A stretch of DNA of 64,000 nucleotides, from NCBI GenBank assembly GCA_046262935.1, contig JBHELT010000083.1, positions 5,360 through 69,359 on the forward strand, written 5' to 3'. The DNA comes from Actinomycetota bacterium. Its GTDB lineage: Bacteria; Actinomycetota; CADDZG01; JAHWKV01. Within the stretch, counting starts at the first letter, position 1. The number at the start of each line of letters is the position of its first letter. The translations under genes and the position numbers were made by a program. This document shows positions 4,930-50,182 of the stretch, in pieces. The notes beneath the pieces were generated by a model. That model did not search any database and was not told the DNA's origin. It worked only from the letters and a program-made list of their open reading frames with translations.

Positions 4930-6288
4930 ATGTCGGCAAGATATGACCTCGTCGTTATCGGGGGCGGAGCAGGCGGCGAGGCTGCAGCATCATTAGCAGC
5001 CGAATCCGGAGCGAGCGTCGCCCTCGTCGAACGAGACCTTCTTGGGGGCGAGTGTGGGTTCTGGGCGTGCATCCCTTCGAAGAGCCTGATCAATTCGGCC
5101 AATCTTCACGCTTTGGGGGCCGACTATCCGTGGGATCGGGCATCGAAGCGGCGCGACTGGATCATCGCGCGGGAGGGCTTGGACTATCCCGATGACTCGC
5201 ATCATGTTCAGAGATTGAAAGACGCGGGCGGCGTACTGGTAAGGGGTACTGCGAAGATTACGGATAAGGGGACCGTGCAGGTCGAGCGCGATGGCTCGAC
5301 CGAGCTGCTTGCGGCCACCAACATCATAGTCAGCACGGGTTCGGTGCCTGTGATACCTGCGATCGAAGGCCTTGTCGAAGCTGGCTATTGGACGAACAGA
5401 CAGGCGACCTCGCTGCGGATTCTTCCAACCAGCATCGTTGTGCTTGGCGGTGGCCCTGTTGGGATCGAATTGGCTCAGGTTTACGCACGGTTCGGCACCA
5501 AAACCTCTGTCGTGGAAGGAAACGATCGGATCTTGGCACGCGATCATCCCAAGTCATCGATGGTTGTGGCGGACCGGTTGAAACGTGAAGGTATCGATCT
5601 CAGGCTCGGGGTCAAAGCGCAGAAGGTCAGCGTCGCGGACGGAAAGAAAGTGGTGCACCTTTCAGATGGCACCACGGCGTCAGGGGCGGAACTATTGGTT
5701 GCCGTCGGCAGACGACCTTCCGACGTTCGCTCTATCGGAATCGAAAATGCCGGCGTTGTCCTTGACGAAAGAGGCGTGGTTCAGCCGGACGGTCAGATGC
5801 GGGTTGGCGATCACATCTTCGTTGCAGGCGACGTGGCGGGAGGCCTTCAATTCACACATGTCGCTGACTACCAGGGCCGAGTCGCGGCTCGCGCAGCGCT
5901 TGGCTCTAAGGCGATCGCCAACATGGCTACGGTTCCGAAGGCCACATTCACCGAACCCGAAACCGCTGCTGTGGGCCTCACCGAGGAAGAAGCACACGGT
6001 GGCGGTTTCGATGCGTTCGAGGTTTCGACAGATTTCGCCCAGAGCGCTCGTGGTCAAGCTCTAGAAGGCTCCGAAGGACACATCACTGTCACTGTCGATA
6101 GGGAGCGCAAGGTATTGATCGGCGCGTTCGCGGCTTGTCCGGGGGCCGCTGACATCATCCACGAGGCAACTCTGGCGATAAGGCAAGGCATCCCAGTGAG
6201 CGTTCTGAGCGACACCATCCATGCATTCCCCACCGGCTCTAGGGTATTCGGGGTCTTGATGTGGGATGCGCAGAAGCGTCTTGGTTGA
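4930..6288 (+). CDS. FAD-dependent pyridine nucleotide-disulfide oxidoreductase (dihydrolipoamide dehydrogenase / mercuric-reductase-like)
   Basis: 452 aa. N-terminal FAD fold GGGAGG, redox-active disulfide region GGECGFWACIPSK, a second NAD-binding GGGPVG, and a C-terminal dimerisation domain. Confidence 0.85.
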   Translation: MSARYDLVVIGGGAGGEAAASLAAESGASVALVERDLLGGECGFWACIPSKSLINSANLHALGADYPWDRASKRRDWIIAREGLDYPDDSHHVQRLKDAGGVLVRGTAKITDKGTVQVERDGSTELLAATNIIVSTGSVPVIPAIEGLVEAGYWTNRQATSLRILPTSIVVLGGGPVGIELAQVYARFGTKTSVVEGNDRILARDHPKSSMVVADRLKREGIDLRLGVKAQKVSVADGKKVVHLSDGTTASGAELLVAVGRRPSDVRSIGIENAGVVLDERGVVQPDGQMRVGDHIFVAGDVAGGLQFTHVADYQGRVAARAALGSKAIANMATVPKATFTEPETAAVGLTEEEAHGGGFDAFEVSTDFAQSARGQALEGSEGHITVTVDRERKVLIGAFAACPGAADIIHEATLAIRQGIPVSVLSDTIHAFPTGSRVFGVLMWDAQKRLG

Positions 6289-7134
6289 TCACTTGAGCAG
6301 GCGGCTCAATCTTCGATCTTTCAACACCTTGCCATCTGTCTGACACACAGGGCAGTAACACATGACGTGGTTCTCGTAGAAAACGGCTTCGATCGTTGTC
6401 GAACATCTCCAGCAAGGCTCAGTGTTATGCCTGTGGACACGAAGCGGCATCGGAAGCTTGTCGGGCAGCGGAAGCGACAGCTCCTTCTCGTAGTGAGCCA
6501 ACGCGCCGCTTAGGCAAACGATCATCGACTCTCGCAGCTCATCCATCTGTTCAGCCGACAGATCGGCCGGCTTCTTGAAGGGCGAAAGCTTGGCCAGATG
6601 CAATATCTCATCAACCCATGAGCGGCCTATGCCAGCTATAACTCTTTGGTCTCGCAGGATCGAATGCAAAGGTCTGTTTCCCGAGAGTAACCCTTCGAGA
6701 GCAGGGGGTTTTGGCCATGCCTCGGGGCCGAGCGATGACAGGACTGCCTCGTTCTTTAGTTGTGAATCCTCGATGAGTTTGGCCCACGCGGACTGCTTGG
6801 TCCCGAACTCCCTCAGTCTCAGTTCTTTCGTACCCTCGATCGCGATCGCTATCCTCGTTGAGCGGTCCTTGATCGATGCGGGTTTGTCATACAACTGAAG
6901 GCGTCCCGCAGACATCAGATGGATGAGGAGACTGAACTTTCCTCCTGCACTGATCAGTAGATGTTTACCGCGTCGAGTTATCCGCTCGATCCTGAGCCCC
7001 GTCAATGCCTCGATGGGTGGCTCGAAACTCTTGAGTGTACTGAGGCCTTGGACCCGCACTTTGTCGATCTTCGCTCCTCGGGTTGCCTCACCGAGCAGCC
7101 GGGCGGTGATCTCGACCTCAGGAAGCTCAGGCAT
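6289..7134 (-). CDS. Fpg/Nei family DNA glycosylase (formamidopyrimidine / endonuclease VIII-like)
   Basis: Starts MPELPEVE (catalytic Pro2/Glu3). H2TH domain and a C-terminal C4 zinc finger, CWRC...CPVCQ. Confidence 0.9.
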   Translation of the reverse strand: MPELPEVEITARLLGEATRGAKIDKVRVQGLSTLKSFEPPIEALTGLRIERITRRGKHLLISAGGKFSLLIHLMSAGRLQLYDKPASIKDRSTRIAIAIEGTKELRLREFGTKQSAWAKLIEDSQLKNEAVLSSLGPEAWPKPPALEGLLSGNRPLHSILRDQRVIAGIGRSWVDEILHLAKLSPFKKPADLSAEQMDELRESMIVCLSGALAHYEKELSLPLPDKLPMPLRVHRHNTEPCWRCSTTIEAVFYENHVMCYCPVCQTDGKVLKDRRLSRLLK

Positions 7135-7774
7135 GGTCCCCGCCGGCCGCCTCTCTCAGTAACCGCCTAACGTCGTCGTCGGTGGTCGGCGAGAAATCGT
7201 CGTACCAGGCCCCAACCGCCAACAGGTCTTGTGGCTGATGCAAGCAACTGAGCGACTCACAGAGCGATCGGACCTGTACGCATGTTGAGGCTGCGCCAAC
7301 TGGGACTGCGACATGCACGCTCTTGCAGTTTCCGATGCGGGCCGCCACGATGGCTGCTTTCATGCTGGCTCCTGTAGCTAGACCATCGTCGACGATGATG
7401 ACTTCCTTACCCGAGATCGGCACCGGGAAGCGGCCAGCCCGCAGATCTTTCTCGCGCCGATCCACTTCGATCTGTTCGGTCACGATCGCTTTGTTGATCG
7501 CTTCCGACGAGATCCGCATCGACGCGATGACGGCCTCGTTGAGGATGCGCACGTCGCCACTGGCGACGGCCCCCATCGCCAACTCCTCATGTCCAGGCAC
7601 TCCGAGTTTGCGAACAACCATGATGTCGAGTTGAGCCTCGAGGCCAAGAGCCACCTCGAATGCGACCGGAACCCCTCCCCTTGGCAGACCAAGGACCAAT
7701 GGGTTCACGAACGAACGCTCTTGTAGTGCTTGGGACAAATGCCTCCCCGCTTGATGCCTGTCGGCGAACCTCAC
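7127..7774 (-). CDS. phosphoribosyltransferase domain protein
   Basis: PRT fold motif VIIVDDGLATGASM. A GTG start at 7774 forms a GTGA overlap with the stop of the upstream membrane protein. The 3' end overlaps the fpg start by 8 bp, indicating an operon. Confidence 0.75.
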   Translation of the reverse strand: MRFADRHQAGRHLSQALQERSFVNPLVLGLPRGGVPVAFEVALGLEAQLDIMVVRKLGVPGHEELAMGAVASGDVRILNEAVIASMRISSEAINKAIVTEQIEVDRREKDLRAGRFPVPISGKEVIIVDDGLATGASMKAAIVAARIGNCKSVHVAVPVGAASTCVQVRSLCESLSCLHQPQDLLAVGAWYDDFSPTTDDDVRRLLREAAGGDHA

Positions 7775-42479: not shown

Positions 42480-44348
42480 GTGACCATGTCGAAGATGATC
42501 AAAGCGGCCGCCAAGAAGGCGGCCGCTTTGGCCTTCGCCGTTACCCTTTTCGAATGGGCGGTGCACGCCGCACGCGGTGTGCAACTCGGGCCCCTGATGC
42601 CTCACCTGGCGATCGACGTTGCCCTCTGCTTCCCGTTCGCGTTGTTCGCTTGCGTGGTTGGAGCACGATGGGGGCCTCGGAACACATTCGCCAACGCCAT
42701 GACCACCGGATCGCTGTTCTGCATGCTGCTCGCCATGGGAATGAAAGCACATGAAGCTGTCCATAACCTCGGTCGCCTGCCTTTGGTCATCCACCTTCAT
42801 TCGGTCGAGCCGACACAGGGTTTCGGGGCGTCCTTGAAGCACGGACTGGTCGACGCTGCTTATGCATTGCCTGTCGCGGTGCTAGTCCTCGTGGCCGTGC
42901 CGGCGATCTCGCGTATACCGAGGCGTGTCAGATTGTCATTGTTGATGTCGGTCGCTCTCGCTGCACCATTTTCTGCTCAAGCTTCAGGGTCCCCGATCGT
43001 CGCTTTCGCCGTACCGCTGCCCATCCCGGCAACGATCAGTTCTGCAGACATAACTCTCACCGCCCAGCAAACCCCGGTTCAGATATTGAGCGGAACACCT
43101 ACCAACATGTTGACCTTCGATGGGACCTTCCCCGGGCCAACGATCAGAAGACCTAGCGGTCAAACAACTCGTATCACCGTTGTCAACCAACTGCCGGCCA
43201 GTGCGGGAGGGATAACACTTCATCAGCACGGCAATCACTCGGCATCTTCGCAAGACGGTCAGCCTGATGATCTGATACCTGTCGGATCTGAGCGAACCTA
43301 TACCTACGACTTCATCGAGAACGGGGGCCCCGAGCGCGGCGCGATGCAGTGGTATCACGATCACCGTATGGGTATGACCGGACAGAACGTGTGGATGGGC
43401 CTTGCTGGCATGGTGATCTTGGATGATCCAGCCGAAGCATCGATCGATGCTCAATTGCCCAACGGAGCCGCCGATGTCCCCATCATGATCACCGATCGCA
43501 CATTCGACGCAGGTGATCAGATCCCCTACAACTGGTCACCGGAGGGCGTCCGCGGCGACACGATCCTCGCTAATGGCGCGCCATCGCCGTACTTCGAAGT
43601 TGCCAACCGCAAGTATCGGCTGCGTCTACTGAACGCATCCAACTCGCGTCTATTTGATTTCGCGATGGGCGACGGGCAGCCGTTGGTACAGATCGCCTCC
43701 GAGAGCGGCCTGCTGCCTGCTCCGGTCAGTCGCTCGCACATCGTGCTCGGCCCCGCGGAGCGGGCCGAGGTCATCGTCGATTTCAACAACTCGATCGGCA
43801 CGAATATAGTGCTGAGGAACCTCTTGGGATCTGGCCCACTTTCGCAAGTGATGCAATTTCGTGTCATCCGATCTGAAGCCGATCCCAGCATCATCCCTTC
43901 GACCCTGCGTCCGGCACCAGTCTTCAGTCCCTTGACCATAGCTGCCGATCGCACTTGGGTACTTGGCCGCGACATCGATACTGGGATGTGGACGATCAAC
44001 GGCAAGGGCTACGACCATGACAGAGTCGATGCCAGACCGATACTCGGCACCACCGAGCGGTGGACATTCGTCAACTCGACAAGTGTCGACCACATCGTTC
44101 ATATCCATGATGTCGATTGGAAAGTGATCGCCCGCTCTGGTCCGCTGCCGCCGAATGGAGCAGCCGACCTGATGCAAGATCCCGGAGAATCGGGCCTGAA
44201 AGAGAGTTTCCGGCTGCGCGGCAATGAGGTCGTCACGGTCGAATCGACATTTACCGATCACCTGGGCCGATTCGTCTGGCACTGCCACATGCTCGAGCAC
44301 GAAGACTTTGCCATGATGACTCAGTTCGAGGTTGTGCCGCCAGGTTGA
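42480..44348 (+). CDS. multicopper oxidase (three-cupredoxin-domain laccase/CueO-like) with a ~160-aa N-terminal hydrophobic extension
   Basis: MCO copper-ligand motifs HQHGNH, WYHDH and C-terminal HCHMLEHED...M. N-terminal 4-5 TM helices are in the same frame with no stop. A possible internal signal-peptide start lies near 42940 (MSVALAAPFSAQA). Confidence 0.85.
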   Translation: MTMSKMIKAAAKKAAALAFAVTLFEWAVHAARGVQLGPLMPHLAIDVALCFPFALFACVVGARWGPRNTFANAMTTGSLFCMLLAMGMKAHEAVHNLGRLPLVIHLHSVEPTQGFGASLKHGLVDAAYALPVAVLVLVAVPAISRIPRRVRLSLLMSVALAAPFSAQASGSPIVAFAVPLPIPATISSADITLTAQQTPVQILSGTPTNMLTFDGTFPGPTIRRPSGQTTRITVVNQLPASAGGITLHQHGNHSASSQDGQPDDLIPVGSERTYTYDFIENGGPERGAMQWYHDHRMGMTGQNVWMGLAGMVILDDPAEASIDAQLPNGAADVPIMITDRTFDAGDQIPYNWSPEGVRGDTILANGAPSPYFEVANRKYRLRLLNASNSRLFDFAMGDGQPLVQIASESGLLPAPVSRSHIVLGPAERAEVIVDFNNSIGTNIVLRNLLGSGPLSQVMQFRVIRSEADPSIIPSTLRPAPVFSPLTIAADRTWVLGRDIDTGMWTINGKGYDHDRVDARPILGTTERWTFVNSTSVDHIVHIHDVDWKVIARSGPLPPNGAADLMQDPGESGLKESFRLRGNEVVTVESTFTDHLGRFVWHCHMLEHEDFAMMTQFEVVPPG

Positions 44349-45099: not shown

Positions 45100-46878
45100 T
45101 CAACCTAGATTGCGCAGGGCCTCGGCCGGAGACAAGCGCGAAGCTCTCCAGCCCCCAACAGCGCCTGCTATCAATCCGCCTACCAGGGCGAACGCCAGGC
45201 CGATAACTATGGTCATTGGGTGAACGGGGGCCGTCAGGGTCAATCGTGCTGTGTGAACGGTTGCCACACCTGCCGAACCGAAGAATTGACCAAGCGACGA
45301 CGACGATACGCCCGGGATCCCAGACGAACTCGCAGTCAGCTCGGGAGAGAAGGTTCGGACCGCTATCGCTGCCGCGTATCCCAGGATCACACCAAGCGCG
45401 CCGCCAAGTACACCGATGCCGAACGTTTCTGCCAAGATCTGTCGAACAACGCGCGATCGCGACCACCCGATGGCTCTTAATGTTCCGATCTCCCGAACGC
45501 GCTTGGCGATCGATGACAATGTGAGCAATACCGCGATCGCGAATGCGAATATCAACACGATGATCGCGGCCGCGCCCCCGAGGCGGTCGGCCAGTTTCTG
45601 AGCATCAGTCAGACTACCGGTGACCTGATCGGCGAGGGTCTTGGTCGTAACAACCTCAGCCCCAGGTATCGCCTTCTTGATGCTGGCTGCGACCTTATCG
45701 ACCGAAGCCGAATCCGACGCCGTCACCAGCACTTGAGTAACGCGGTCCTGTTTCCCAGCGAGACCCTGCAGTGTCGTTAGTGGGAAATAGATGTCGGCAG
45801 TGCCGCCGGTAAGTGTTGGGTTGACTGTTCCCACAACCTTGTAGATGGTCTCGTTTATGGTCATCGTCGAGCCCACTTTCAAGTTGCTCTTGTTCGCGTA
45901 CGCTGTATTCAGCAGCACAGTATCGGTGGTTCCTTTCGACAGCCAACTGCCCGATACCAGTTGCGCAGGCGTTACCAAACCCAAGCTCGGGATCGAGGGG
46001 TCGATCCCGGCCGCCGTGTAACTGTTGTTGGTGATATCGGTACTCGGCGGGGCAACGACCTGCTGGATCGTTCGAAGAGGCGTTATGACCGACGCTTCGA
46101 ATCGCTTGAAACGCTCAGGTAGACAGGTTTGGAATGAAGAAGTATCGCGGCCTCCCCCTCCACCCTCAGGGGGACCGCCGGGGCCCCCACCTGCACCGAA
46201 TCCGCCGTTCGCCTGGACGCAGTCGCGAAACGTCTGACGTTCGGCATCACTCATGGGTGCTGGCCTCACGGTCGAGGTGACTGTCTGGCCCCCAGTCTGA
46301 ACTTCAGCAATGATGTTGGGGACCGTGCCCGTTTGGTGTTGTGCCAGTTGAGTCAAAGCACCAACAGCTTTAGTAACTCCCGCGATCGATGAGATCTTTC
46401 CGACCGATGCTTGAGGGAAACTGAGAAGAGTCGCCGAAAGGAAGAAATCATGGGTGAACTTTTCGCCAGGTTTGCCTAGCTTTGAAAGATCGGTGACGAC
46501 GTTGCTGTTTTCGTTAAGCAGTGCCGCCGCATCGGCTTGGTTCAGGTCTGCCCCAGGGCCCCTGACAGCGCCGGGTCCGCCGAAGAACCCGGCCCGCCTT
46601 TGCTGGCCGCTGCTCGCAGTTGCTGTTGGCGTTGCCGGCGCAGAATCGGTAACCGTTCCCGTTGAGGTTTGAACCGTACCCGCTACCCGGGTAACCAAGA
46701 TGTCGGTCCCTATCGCTTGCAGCGGCGCAAGGACTTTCGACTGAGCCTCGTTCAATCCCTGGGAGACCCCGATGATCGCGATGACCATCGCCACCCCAGC
46801 CGCCAGCCCAAGGGCCGTAAGTACCGTCCTGCCCCACCGGCGGGTGAGTTCCTTTCTCATGTAAGCAAGTTGGAACAT
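45100..46878 (-). CDS. ABC transporter permease, FtsX/MacB-like with a large extracytoplasmic domain
   Basis: ATG at 46878 with AAGGAG RBS. N-terminal TM, ~400-aa extracellular domain containing a Gly/Pro-rich insert, and a C-terminal FtsX 3-TM bundle. Confidence 0.8.
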   Translation of the reverse strand: MFQLAYMRKELTRRWGRTVLTALGLAAGVAMVIAIIGVSQGLNEAQSKVLAPLQAIGTDILVTRVAGTVQTSTGTVTDSAPATPTATASSGQQRRAGFFGGPGAVRGPGADLNQADAAALLNENSNVVTDLSKLGKPGEKFTHDFFLSATLLSFPQASVGKISSIAGVTKAVGALTQLAQHQTGTVPNIIAEVQTGGQTVTSTVRPAPMSDAERQTFRDCVQANGGFGAGGGPGGPPEGGGGGRDTSSFQTCLPERFKRFEASVITPLRTIQQVVAPPSTDITNNSYTAAGIDPSIPSLGLVTPAQLVSGSWLSKGTTDTVLLNTAYANKSNLKVGSTMTINETIYKVVGTVNPTLTGGTADIYFPLTTLQGLAGKQDRVTQVLVTASDSASVDKVAASIKKAIPGAEVVTTKTLADQVTGSLTDAQKLADRLGGAAAIIVLIFAFAIAVLLTLSSIAKRVREIGTLRAIGWSRSRVVRQILAETFGIGVLGGALGVILGYAAAIAVRTFSPELTASSSGIPGVSSSSLGQFFGSAGVATVHTARLTLTAPVHPMTIVIGLAFALVGGLIAGAVGGWRASRLSPAEALRNLG

Positions 46879-46993
46879 CAGTACTCCTTGGCTAAGTTGA
46901 ACACCTGAAGCCAAGGAGAGTCAGATGACATCAACCAGTTGACAGCCTCGGGTCAGCTGAGGATGAGTGTATGCACGGCCCGAGTATTAGTTG

Positions 46994-48109
46994 CTATATA
47001 CGGCTGGCCTTGTCTTTCGAAGTAGAGATCGACAACCCGAAGCCAACCATCGCGAGCCCGACCAAGAAGATAGGCACGTCCTCGCCACCTGTTCTTGGCA
47101 ATGTCGCTGCGGCAACTGTTGTTGGCGCAAGTGGGACCTGTTTGGTGATCACTACCCCAAGGACCGAGGTGCGCTTGATGGTCGTAAGCGCCGATGCGTC
47201 TTTCGGCGAGGTCTGATCGCTATCTGCGACCGCGACGTTAAGGACCGTAGACCCGGCGTTCGGCGCAACGGTCACTGCGAATGATTCGTCGATAGCCGAA
47301 CCCGATGCAAGGCTTGGGATGGTCCATGTCAGGGTGTTGCCGCTCAAGGTGGGGCCGTCTGTGGCCGTGGCGGCGATCAACGTTGTCCCCGCGGGGATCG
47401 GATCGGTGATCACTACATGAGTTAGCGTTCCCTCACCCGTGTTAACAACATGCACTGTGTAGGTCAGTGTGTCGCCTGGCTTAGCGGTTGCAGAGCTAAC
47501 CGCCTTGGCTATCGTCAAGTCGAACGTCGCCGGAATGGTCGGTGATGGTGATGGACTCGGCGAAGGTGACGGTGACGGGCTGGGAGATGGTGACGGACTG
47601 GGAGATGGGCTGGGAGACGGTGAGGGCCCGGGCGTGACAGCGAAACTCCAAGTGACGAATCCGCAATCGCCACCCACCTTGTTTTGATCGGTATCTTGGG
47701 CGAAGAGCGTCGCGGTGTGAGTCCCGACGGGAAGATTCAACGGAAGAACATACGTGATCGTTACTGTGCGGCCACCGGTCGGAGGATTCAAAGTCGGGGT
47801 AACTTGAACTGAGTCCAAAGTGAATCGGATCGTGGTTATGTTTACGTCGGTTTCATCCGAATAAACAGCACCTATCGTTGAGCCTGGAGCAACAGCGGTT
47901 CCCACTGAAGGGATGATCCCGCCGATGAAGCTGTTCTCGGAACAATTCGTGCCCGTCGTGGTTGGAGAAGGCGAGGCGGACGGGTGATCGGGCGTTTTGG
48001 TCGTAGTTCGATGAGGGTCGTGTGCCGAAACGGCACCCCCCACGGACATGACCATCATTGCCGAACCAAGAACGATCAGAAGTGCCTTAGATACCAACCT
48101 ATTTCTCAT
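46994..48109 (-). CDS. LPXTG-anchored cell-surface protein with DUF11-like repeat domain and (PS)n linker
   Basis: Signal peptide. PSPSPS...(x17) linker. C-terminal LPRTG + hydrophobic helix + KDKASRI sorting signal. Confidence 0.75.
   Translation of the reverse strand: MRNRLVSKALLIVLGSAMMVMSVGGAVSAHDPHRTTTKTPDHPSASPSPTTTGTNCSENSFIGGIIPSVGTAVAPGSTIGAVYSDETDVNITTIRFTLDSVQVTPTLNPPTGGRTVTITYVLPLNLPVGTHTATLFAQDTDQNKVGGDCGFVTWSFAVTPGPSPSPSPSPSPSPSPSPSPSPSPSPSPSPTIPATFDLTIAKAVSSATAKPGDTLTYTVHVVNTGEGTLTHVVITDPIPAGTTLIAATATDGPTLSGNTLTWTIPSLASGSAIDESFAVTVAPNAGSTVLNVAVADSDQTSPKDASALTTIKRTSVLGVVITKQVPLAPTTVAAATLPRTGGEDVPIFLVGLAMVGFGLSISTSKDKASRI
47536..47637 (-). repeat. low-complexity (GGTGAC/GGCTGG)n coding repeat encoding the (Pro-Ser)n linker
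   Basis: Read from the sequence. Confidence 0.6.
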
Positions 48110-48184: not shown

Positions 48185-49852
48185 TCAGGGGGACGGACTC
48201 GGTGAGGTCGCATCGGTCGGCGTTGGGCTTGGCGAGGATTGAGTCGACGGGGATGGGGGGGGCCCAGCAGCGGAGTCGGTGGCGGCCACAGATGGACTCG
48301 GGCTGGATCCGGCCGGAGTTGCCCCACCCTGGCCCGTTAGCCCGGAAGGGCTTGGTGAGACCGACTGATCCGTGGTGAGCCGAGGCTGGTTGGTGCCGGA
48401 AACAGTGTTTCTGCCCAAGATAGCTGGGATGTAGTTGCGCCCCGTGATGATGGGATCAACGATCCCCTGTTCGATGGTGCCCTTCTCACTGGGCGTTATT
48501 GGCTTGTAGTGCTGCGACGGTAACCACGACGCGATCAGTATCATTGACATGAAGAGACCGAGCGCGATCGCAACGGCCCGCGCCAACGGTTTGCCTTTCG
48601 TCATCGAGATGACTCCCGCTGCTGAACGCTTACCTAAACGCACGAACATCAATGACAGACCGGCGAGCGGTATCACGAGTAGCAGAACCTGAATAACGTC
48701 GAATGTGCCGGCGAGGAGTCGCCCACTTGCGAACGCGTGGTTCATATTGGCGATCAATCGCTTGAGAGCATCGAATCCGGTTCCAAAGATGCGAGGAGCG
48801 TGCAACAACAGCATCGATAGGTTCATCAGTAGGATCGGAACGACCATGAGCACCCACAGTGTGATCACCCATCGGACCCAGGACTTCAGTTCCTTCACCT
48901 GCGTGGGCGTTTCTCGCCCAGGTATTGCGCTTTGTAAGATCGGTTTTATTCGTGAAAACAGGTCTGGGACGCCAGTCAGATCCGCAACCAGGTAGTAGCC
49001 ATCGAGCCTAAGGAAAGGAAGCATCTGGTGGATGATCTCTAGTTGCTGAAGCATGATCAACAAGATCAACCACTCTGCACGTGTATACAGGAACAGGCCG
49101 CCCGCGATCAAAGAGAAGATGGCATTGAAGTAAACGCCGCCGAGATCGGTTCGCACCCTGCCCGCCTTGCCAAGTCGATACGCGTCCGTTACGTCCGTAT
49201 AGAAGGCCGGCCAAGCCAGGTAGAGACCGAATCCGATCCGGCCGGGTCGCGCGCCGCCGTAACGGCATGCGGTAGCGTGGCCGACTTCATGGAACATCGT
49301 CGACACCAAGATCAGGCCAAACACCGCTAGGAATAGAGCCGGTGAATAGATGACCTGTCGAACCGCTTGAGCTACCCCGTGGACCCCGAACACCCACGCA
49401 TCCAGCGCGATAGCACCTATAACAACCAGGACAGTCAGGGGCGGAAAAAACAGCGGCTTGAAGAGTGCGGCAGCCATGTTCACTGCCTTTGGAGGCAGGA
49501 GCGTTCCCCTGAACTTCAGGGCCAATAAAGGATCGACTTTGGGTGCTGGCTCCCCGTGCCCATCCCCATCGACAAGCCCCAAGCTCGTCAGTTTGCCCTC
49601 GATGAGGTACGCAACGTCCTGTTCGTCGATGACTTTGCCTGTACGTTGTTTCACTTCCGACGCGATATCGACCAATGAGAGCCCATTCGCCACTCCTTCT
49701 GCAACGAAGAAGAGCAGGGGGGCCAATTGGATGATCTGACCATCCTCTCGTCTGGCGAGATACGGGTCTTGCTTGAACCCAGAACCTTCGTAGCGCCCCA
49801 CCAATTCGATGCCCGTCGAAAGTCTCGGCTGAGCTAGGGTCTCGTTGTTCAC
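48185..49852 (-). CDS. membrane zinc metallopeptidase, M50 (site-2 protease) family-like, with Ser/Pro-rich C-terminal tail
   Basis: HEVGH (HExxH) inside a TM helix. A downstream LPFLRLDG (LDG) motif in a second TM helix. N-terminal ~120-aa cytoplasmic domain. C-terminal ~90 aa rich in Ser/Pro/Thr. Confidence 0.65.
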   Translation of the reverse strand: MNNETLAQPRLSTGIELVGRYEGSGFKQDPYLARREDGQIIQLAPLLFFVAEGVANGLSLVDIASEVKQRTGKVIDEQDVAYLIEGKLTSLGLVDGDGHGEPAPKVDPLLALKFRGTLLPPKAVNMAAALFKPLFFPPLTVLVVIGAIALDAWVFGVHGVAQAVRQVIYSPALFLAVFGLILVSTMFHEVGHATACRYGGARPGRIGFGLYLAWPAFYTDVTDAYRLGKAGRVRTDLGGVYFNAIFSLIAGGLFLYTRAEWLILLIMLQQLEIIHQMLPFLRLDGYYLVADLTGVPDLFSRIKPILQSAIPGRETPTQVKELKSWVRWVITLWVLMVVPILLMNLSMLLLHAPRIFGTGFDALKRLIANMNHAFASGRLLAGTFDVIQVLLLVIPLAGLSLMFVRLGKRSAAGVISMTKGKPLARAVAIALGLFMSMILIASWLPSQHYKPITPSEKGTIEQGIVDPIITGRNYIPAILGRNTVSGTNQPRLTTDQSVSPSPSGLTGQGGATPAGSSPSPSVAATDSAAGPPPSPSTQSSPSPTPTDATSPSPSP

Positions 49853-49918
49853 GTTCCAGATCTCCTACGGCCTAGTGTCGAAGTGTCGATGGTCTGGTCT
49901 TCGTCCGAAAGGGGGCCA

Positions 49919-49952
49919 TCAAAAAGAAGGACGGCCCAACGAGCCGCCCTTC
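49919..49952 (-). terminator. intrinsic-terminator-like hairpin (10-bp stem with one G-U pair, 7-nt loop) followed by a U5 tract, between the small peptide genes and the M50 peptidase gene
   Basis: Minus-strand RNA GAAGGGCGGC-ucguugg-GCCGUCCUUC-UUUUU, read from 49919-49951. An additional small hairpin CUGCC-uaga-GGCAG sits directly after the peptide A stop. Confidence 0.5.
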
Positions 49953-49975
49953 TTAGCGCTGCCTCTAGGCAGTCC

Positions 49976-50182
49976 TTACGTTGACTGCGTTATGTCGCCC
50001 TGTTGGATCGCGTTCGCGTAAGCGGTCGATCCATCAGACAGTACGTTCGCAGCAACCGCTGCATTCACGGGGATGGCGATGTTCGCGTTTATCAGACTCA
50101 ATGCTGCTCGTTCTGGAAGGGGTTCTCCAGCAAGTTGATCTAACTCGTCTCGGCTTACCTTGCGAAATTCGTTGTCACTCAT
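49976..50182 (-). CDS. small peptide A (68 aa), paralogue of peptide B; candidate secreted or processed peptide precursor
   Basis: AGGAGG RBS 8 nt upstream. Charged N-terminal region (MSDNEFRKVSRDELDQLAGE) followed by an Ala/Asn/Val-rich region and the conserved C-terminus ...AYANAIQQGDITQST. No signal peptide and no Cys. Confidence 0.6.
   Translation of the reverse strand: MSDNEFRKVSRDELDQLAGEPLPERAALSLINANIAIPVNAAVAANVLSDGSTAYANAIQQGDITQST

Follow-up and report, generated by a model that had tools for sequence, protein, structure and literature searches.

A conserved terminator-like hairpin between small-peptide genes and a membrane protease gene in an actinobacterial peptide locus

Gene order and the intergenic hairpin

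The window analysed here (the whole stretch of 64 kb, with a G+C content of 58%) carries on its minus strand two successive genes for short peptides, B and A, followed by a gene for a HExxH membrane protease of the M50/site-2-protease-like type (Table 1). The two peptides are 73% identical to each other, both of their genes have an AGGAGG Shine-Dalgarno sequence 8 nt before the ATG, and peptide B ends in ...NITQST. Genes for a DUF11/LPXTG surface protein, a MacB-type permease and an ABC ATPase lie beyond the protease gene on the same strand, and a gene for a secreted protein with a duplicated CxxC motif is divergent from the peptide and protease genes. At the far end of this group, the ABC ATPase gene converges with a multicopper oxidase gene on the plus strand (stop at 44348). 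Their 3' ends overlap by 28 nt (44321..44348), and no terminator-like hairpin lies between them.

Table 1. Features of the peptide/protease locus (positions in the window).
Feature	Position	Strand	Remarks
Secreted protein gene, duplicated CxxC	50571..51212	+	probable start ATG 50613
Peptide B gene	50226..50435	-	69 aa; ATG at 50435; from ORF list
Peptide A gene	49976..50182	-	68 aa; ATG; final gene of the peptide array
Peptide A stop, TAA	49978..49976	-	
Intergenic region, peptide A/protease	49975..49853	-	123 nt
Small hairpin, CUGCC-UAGA-GGCAG	49959..49972	-	immediately 3' of the peptide A stop
Main terminator-like hairpin, full stem	49924..49954	-	14 bp, GUU loop, by RNAfold
Main hairpin core	49952..49943 / 49942..49936 / 49935..49926	-	GAAGGGCGGC / loop UCGUUGG / GCCGUCCUUC
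U5 tract	49921..49925	-	next base G; with the 3' end of the stem, CUUCUUUUUG
Spacer, U tract to protease start	49853..49920	-	68 nt; AGGAG 9 nt before the GTG
HExxH membrane protease gene	48185..49852	-	555 aa; GTG start
DUF11/LPXTG surface protein gene	48109..46994	-	
MacB-type permease gene	46914..45100	-	
ABC ATPase gene	ends at 44321	-	

In the direction of the peptide genes (minus strand), the RNA that separates peptide A from the protease gene runs TAA-GGA-CUGCC-UAGA-GGCAG-CGCUAA-GAAGGGCGGC-UCGUUGG-GCCGUCCUUC-UUUUU-G, and contains a small hairpin and a larger main one. The core of the main hairpin is a 10-bp stem with one G-U pair. It begins 23 nt past the peptide A stop and is followed by a U5 tract that ends 68 nt short of the protease start. 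A first-pass annotation of this DNA had described the stem, its single G-U pair and the U5 tract, and this description and its coordinates on the minus strand were exact. In addition, an A-rich 5' flank of the hairpin pairs with the first bases of the U-rich tail.

The folding energy was also distinguishable from that of shuffled controls, on which the earlier claim had been staked. The minimum free energy of a 66-nt segment in RNAfold was -32.3 kcal/mol, compared to -21.5 +/- 2.7 kcal/mol for 200 dinucleotide shuffles (z = -4.0), none of which folded as well. When the sequence upstream of every run of at least four T in the 64 kb window was folded on both strands (n = 142), the main hairpin with its T tract ranked first, at -22.5 kcal/mol. 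The second-ranked site (42502..42547, plus strand, AAGCGGCCGCC...GGCGGCCGCTT, -20.1 kcal/mol) is located inside the multicopper oxidase ORF, at its 5' end, codes for KAAAKKAAAL and is probably a by-product of this Ala/Lys-rich coding sequence. A scan for consensus promoters and terminators did not list the main hairpin among its sites, probably because its greedy stem extension consumed two of the U residues.

The main stem formed with a pairing probability of at least 0.997 in all transcript contexts modelled, which were up to 530 nt long and whose starts ranged from the stop codon to positions before peptide B. The best competing duplex of the 5' arm had an energy of -13.0 kcal/mol compared to -20.2 kcal/mol for the two terminator arms, and no antiterminator or other alternative fold was predicted in contexts of up to 530 nt. 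With the stem at this probability, no sign was found of regulation by ribosomes or antitermination of the mccA-mccB type. In Rfam, no family reached its gathering score even at a relaxed threshold, and the sub-threshold matches were of the kind expected by chance (sbcD RNA, 20.3 bits compared to a required 40, E = 0.69; Glutamine-II riboswitch, 16.5 compared to 33, E = 0.91). The sequence of the main hairpin occurs once only in the window, and its interpretation as a repeated element or REP was therefore rejected.

The main hairpin thus carries all the sequence features of a candidate intrinsic terminator, namely a GC-rich stem, a short loop and an adjacent U tract, in noncoding DNA, 3' of a stop codon and on the transcribed strand.

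The small hairpin is less distinctive. It lies directly after the stop codon, as the first-pass annotation had noted, has an energy of -6.3 kcal/mol and is present in the minimum-free-energy fold. Stems of 5 bp with a 4-nt loop comparable to it occur about once per 2.1 kb, and the segment before the main hairpin folded better than its own shuffles in just 1 of 37 related loci. The small hairpin is thus real but not conserved in these relatives; a role as a functional part of the element finds no support in these loci, and it is probably incidental.

Conservation of the hairpin in related loci

We scanned one genome per species and compared the 80 loci with a gene for a homologous protease. They are from Acidimicrobiia, Thermoleophilia, Frankiaceae, Mycobacteriaceae and Streptomyces as well as some Chloroflexota and Dormibacterota. 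In 51 of these, the protease gene is immediately preceded on its own strand by one to five peptide genes. About 47 of the 51 have a strong GC-rich hairpin after the last peptide stop, with energies of -18 to -45 kcal/mol, and it mostly begins 5-30 nt past that stop.

This strong folding is specific to the end of the array. The 70 nt past the last peptide stop had a median minimum free energy of -36.9 kcal/mol (n = 51). The medians were -16.6 kcal/mol past the stops of the other peptide genes (n = 106, p = 3e-18 against the last stop), -23.2 kcal/mol past the protease stop (n = 45, p = 2e-6) and -25.8 kcal/mol in random 70-nt windows (n = 1020, p = 5e-17; Mann-Whitney throughout). Compared to shuffles, the sites past the last peptide stop had a median z of -3.2, and z was below -2 in 80% of them.

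Seven of the loci (L014, L015, L024, L032, L035, L040 and L046) have the array in another place, either downstream of the protease gene or divergent from it. Nearly all array ends in these loci still carry a hairpin, with energies of -39 to -50 kcal/mol and in some cases a clear U tract; it is absent after a lone peptide gene downstream of the M50 gene in L024 and after a lone upstream peptide gene in L040. As the array ends keep the hairpin where the protease gene is elsewhere, the hairpin is a 3'-end feature of the peptide transcript. It goes with the end of the peptide unit and is no leader element of the protease gene. The ends of short metagenome contigs, taken as a proxy for transcript ends, varied and, the samples being metagenomes, were uninformative.

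Because the main hairpin folds more strongly than all of its shuffles and is kept in position across related loci, it is not a chance feature. We conclude that the junction hairpin in the window is real and conserved, and most likely a conventional terminator or attenuator.

What is mainly conserved is structure rather than sequence, as the stem sequences are unrelated in many loci. RNAalifold found 11 pairs, 6 of them with double compensatory changes, in an alignment of 25 junctions, which had been picked for a shared GGCGG core, so that the covariation is biased toward alignable cases. Among perfect stems of at least 9 bp with at least 7 G-C pairs, GGCGG was present in 21 of 30 junction stems compared to 12 of 75 stems elsewhere in the same loci (Fisher p = 2e-7), and several of those 12 are themselves junction hairpins lost to the position filter (L044, L051, L070 and L040). 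At the junction the motif is always in the 5' arm (21 cases to 0), as it is in the window (49948..49944). This preference suggests, from the sequences compared, that the hairpin was inherited along with the cassette.

Peptides, protease and partner genes

Searches with peptide A returned 4036 homologs at E <= 1e-3, the best 120 of which were 72-85% identical. An alignment of the family gives the motif R-x-E-L-x-x-L-A-G-E-x-L-P-E-R-A-A-M-S-L-I-N-A-N...N-V-L-S-D...Q-x-x-x-I-x-Q. The family is in neither Pfam nor NCBIfam. Judged by this conservation, peptides A and B are real small-peptide genes of a large family (more than 4000 homologs). Typical RiPP precursors have variable cores. The peptides of about 68 aa are conserved end to end over thousands of homologs, the would-be 'core' included. 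They may therefore act in signalling or as structural components, or the product may be left unmodified.

Two of the related loci have peptide genes of unusual form. In Mycolicibacterium (L057, 3179..3934), a 251-aa protein encoded upstream of the protease gene has a peptide-like module at its N-terminus and an Ala/Asn-rich stretch. In Streptomyces sp. NBC_01176 (L070, 3230..3794), there are two divergent 72-aa peptides with the motif E-L-L-P-G-R-E-A-L, and a 15-bp GGCGG hairpin lies between them and the protease gene.

The 555-aa protease is identical to a protein deposited at NCBI as 'MAG: hypothetical protein ABR507_09810 [Actinomycetota bacterium]'. It has more than 4600 homologs, many of them named 'putative peptide zinc metalloprotease'. 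Its match to Pfam Peptidase_M50 is weak. Among NCBIfam models, it matched daptide_HExxH (8e-29, 100.8 bits, under the 300-bit cut-off) and the epipeptide protease YydH/LiaK (4e-13, also under the cut-off), and the PADLOC defence models gave no matches.

The N-terminus of the protease had no match in Pfam at E <= 10. Residues 1-125 were modelled by AlphaFold with a mean pLDDT of 76, rising to about 90 over residues 30-90, as three strands followed by three helices. The top matches to this model in the Protein Data Bank were RRE domains of lasso-peptide B1 proteins with bound leader peptides (6jx3_B with a probability of 1.00 and 5v1u with 0.99, at E-values of only about 1e-2). Residues 10-90 or so are therefore predicted to form an RRE-like leader-peptide-binding domain. 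This strengthens the view that the genes form a peptide operon, which the first-pass annotation had proposed and which now draws on both the conserved peptide genes and the predicted RRE-like domain of the protease. The reading as precursor peptides plus a processing protease is well supported.

The partners of this pair differ from those expected. The first-pass annotation had placed export machinery in the same unit, and this did not hold up: neither the DUF11 protein nor the MacB-type ABC transporter is conserved across the related loci, and both were rejected as cluster partners. It is the CxxC protein that recurs. By tblastn, it has a homolog in 38 of the 80 loci, mostly encoded directly downstream of the protease gene, with a duplicated motif of C-x-x-C followed by A-x-A-x-Q (the L001 copy is at 5659..6453). 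In Mycolicibacterium sp. BiH015 (L057, 3962..6451), the protease itself ends in a fused domain homologous to the CxxC protein. Searches of Pfam, NCBIfam and PADLOC gave no family for the CxxC protein. From its recurrence we take the secreted CxxC protein to be the third conserved member of the cassette, beside the peptides and the protease.

In 31 of the 80 loci, the CxxC gene is followed by the gene of a further conserved partner, a lipoprotein-like protein of about 270 aa (for example L001, 6450..7283; L030, 6413..7198; L010, about 6400..7204), of which the window encodes no homolog. Clustering of all ORFs in the loci was polluted by the antisense ORFs typical of high-GC DNA, and only the CxxC and lipoprotein-like clusters were usable.

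By gene content, the cluster most resembles daptide clusters, which are also found in Actinomycetota and in which an intramembrane site-2-type protease likewise carries an RRE at its N-terminus (Ren et al. 2023, bioRxiv 10.1101/2023.03.08.531785). The combination of an RRE and an intramembrane HExxH protease is present here, with the RRE taken from a structural model and the NCBIfam score under its cut-off. Further points of likeness are the several similar short precursor ORFs that adjoin the protease gene, their acidic E-L-x-x leader motif and their aliphatic core. In contrast, the enzymes of daptide clusters (PLP aminotransferase, alcohol dehydrogenase, SAM methyltransferase and DUF-RRE) were absent both among the ORFs about 12 kb to either side and among the conserved neighbours in the 80 loci. 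Both window peptides have a C-terminal Thr, but it is not invariant as it is in daptides, since N, T, I, G and Q all occur as the last residue of homologs. Moreover, the peptides match no NCBIfam model, and the conserved partner is the secreted CxxC protein. With the enzymes missing, the C-terminal Thr variable and the protease at 100.8 bits compared to 300, identity with a daptide cluster was rejected.

Termination, read-through and alternative explanations

What does the hairpin do at this junction? We think it probable, with some reserve, that it is a constitutive intrinsic terminator that ends and stabilises most peptide transcripts, with a minority reading through to the protease gene. 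Transcription would begin upstream of peptide B, and the majority of RNA polymerases would halt at 49925..49921, giving a short bicistronic peptide mRNA whose stable 3' hairpin would also shield it from 3' exonucleases. A minority of polymerases would continue into the gene for the RRE-fused membrane protease, and possibly beyond, and the outcome would be a large excess of substrate peptide over processing enzyme. We infer both that transcripts end at the main hairpin and that, in this organism, the protease gene is fed by read-through and not by a promoter of its own.

The translation signals point the same way. Both peptide genes combine AGGAGG with ATG, whereas the protease gene has the weaker combination of AGGAG with GTG, which would favour high peptide and low protease output.

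Five related loci bear on the supply of the protease gene. In L066 (1695..1740), a 19-bp stem closes with the protease ATG, which makes up the final three bases of its 3' arm. In L009 (3938..3985) and L039 (1689..1760), the sole in-frame protease starts are upstream of the hairpin. The protease start in L012 is 30 nt past the hairpin, and the conserved protease N-terminus in L080 starts 37 nt past it. There is no room for a promoter in any of these loci, and the protease would therefore be expressed there by read-through only. The overlap of hairpin and start in some relatives suggests an added translational block, or else starts that are mis-assigned or non-canonical.

These loci, with protease starts inside the hairpin or no more than 37 nt from it, are difficult to reconcile with a complete terminator that would separate two transcription units and leave the protease, DUF11 and ABC genes to a promoter of their own, situated within the 68-nt spacer or so as to overlap the hairpin. 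Tight same-strand synteny in 51 of the 80 loci likewise suggests co-transcription, and we consider a complete terminator unlikely. It does have points in its favour. By sequence criteria the main hairpin looks strong and not obviously leaky, it also ends arrays that have no protease gene downstream, where the role of a plain terminator is required, and the median spacing of 102 nt between the hairpin and the conserved protease N-terminus in the relatives leaves room for a promoter in most loci. The spacer has no TANNNT or sigma-70-like site, which is weak evidence against such a promoter, as the same is true of the 280 nt upstream of peptide B and the absence is therefore non-discriminating.

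The sequences that follow the stems of the relatives raise another explanation, in which RNA polymerase passes the hairpin, or transcripts have a Rho-dependent end further downstream, and the hairpin blocks exonucleases so that the peptide segment outlives the protease segment. Most relatives have long GC stems without a canonical U tract: only 5 of 47 have at least 4 T in the 8 nt past the stem. This scarcity fits surveys of Actinobacterial 3' stem-loops, which are long and often lack U-rich tails, with shorter U tracts in high-GC species, and stem-loops without U tracts are also known there for processed or Rho-dependent 3' ends (PMC13613805). Because most relatives have no U tract, the function common to the family may be RNA 3'-end stabilisation, or termination that is factor-assisted, and not classical intrinsic termination. 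The result would be the same, with peptide mRNA in excess. Nevertheless, T is about two-fold enriched past the stems of the relatives (a mean of 2.2 in 8 nt compared to 1.06 expected from composition). The window, where G+C is lower, has the most canonical U tract in the family, a U5 right after the stem together with an A-rich 5' flank, and we regard a pure stability element as quite improbable.

A feature that does not act as RNA (a palindrome arisen by chance, an extragenic repeat, or an operator in the DNA through which the protease gene would be regulated) is very improbable: a perfect-looking inverted repeat upstream of a gene, with GGCGG in 21 of 30 junction stems, could mean a sequence-specific site, but the sequence is unique in the window, its folding beats all shuffles, outer stem positions vary with compensation and many loci have unrelated stems, the hairpin tracks the end of the peptide array and not the protease start, and the G-rich arm is 5' on the peptide strand in 21 cases to 0, a strand-specific property of RNA.

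Constitutive termination with read-through, the complete terminator and the stability element share one physiological outcome, and only the non-RNA explanation does not.

An arrangement of this kind has precedents. A terminator or hairpin follows the structural gene in nisA, epiA, sboA and the lasso-peptide A genes. A Rho-independent terminator is also found behind sagA (streptolysin S), and expression of LsbB needs a terminator (review PMC4786598). As in such bacteriocin and RiPP clusters, the stem-loop in the window comes right after the precursor genes, with processing genes downstream on the same strand and a presumed role in setting a ratio; unlike them, the cassette has no modification enzymes, its peptides are conserved over their whole length, and an RRE-fused membrane protease comes next. 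The analogy to lantibiotic operons drawn in the first-pass annotation can thus be kept for the mechanism, but not for the gene content, as modification enzymes are absent. We found nothing directly citable in the literature on read-through at lantibiotic terminators.

Among studied systems, the nearest parallel is the terminator between mccA and mccB in the microcin C operon, which yields two transcripts, a short and stable one of the precursor in abundance and a long one in small amounts (Zukher et al. 2014, PMC4231749). There, an intrinsic terminator separates the gene of a precursor peptide from that of the enzyme acting on the peptide. In the window, peptide genes, hairpin and the gene of the putative acting enzyme likewise follow one another on the same strand, an order shared by 51 of the 80 loci. 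The mcc terminator is conserved among homologous operons; RNA upstream of it lowers its strength, and ribosome binding turns it on (PMC4231749). In contrast, the hairpin in the window has no predicted competing fold, and the organisms, peptides and enzymes are unrelated. Internal terminators are also reported to set subunit stoichiometry in ABC importer operons of Clostridia (PMC9045158); the likeness there is an internal terminator after a highly needed first gene, with different genes and a different phylum.

On its own, the hairpin is a textbook device for an excess of peptide over processing enzyme and brings no new principle. It is useful as an annotation landmark, as it shows where the peptide transcription unit ends in a large family yet to be characterised. 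This family, which counts more than 4000 peptide and more than 4600 protease homologs and whose carriers are mostly uncultured Actinomycetota of soil, is daptide-like without daptide chemistry. The conserved hairpin, the predicted RRE-like domain and the CxxC partner are three experimental handles on it, and cultured carriers among the related loci include Streptomyces sp. NBC_01176 and several Mycolicibacterium and Mycobacterium isolates.

More speculatively, the hairpin could be an inherited, cassette-specific RNA element of an undescribed and very widespread actinobacterial peptide system, and not a generic terminator, although we hold this to be unlikely. The system would consist of tandem conserved peptides of about 68 aa, an RRE-fused site-2-type protease and a secreted CxxC protein. 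If this were true, the element would set the ratio of peptide to protease in transcription as well as in translation, perhaps through a factor of its own, as the GGCGG core that is always in the 5' arm and the stem that covers the protease start in some members would imply. It is the surrounding uncharacterised peptide system, more than the hairpin, that is of interest.
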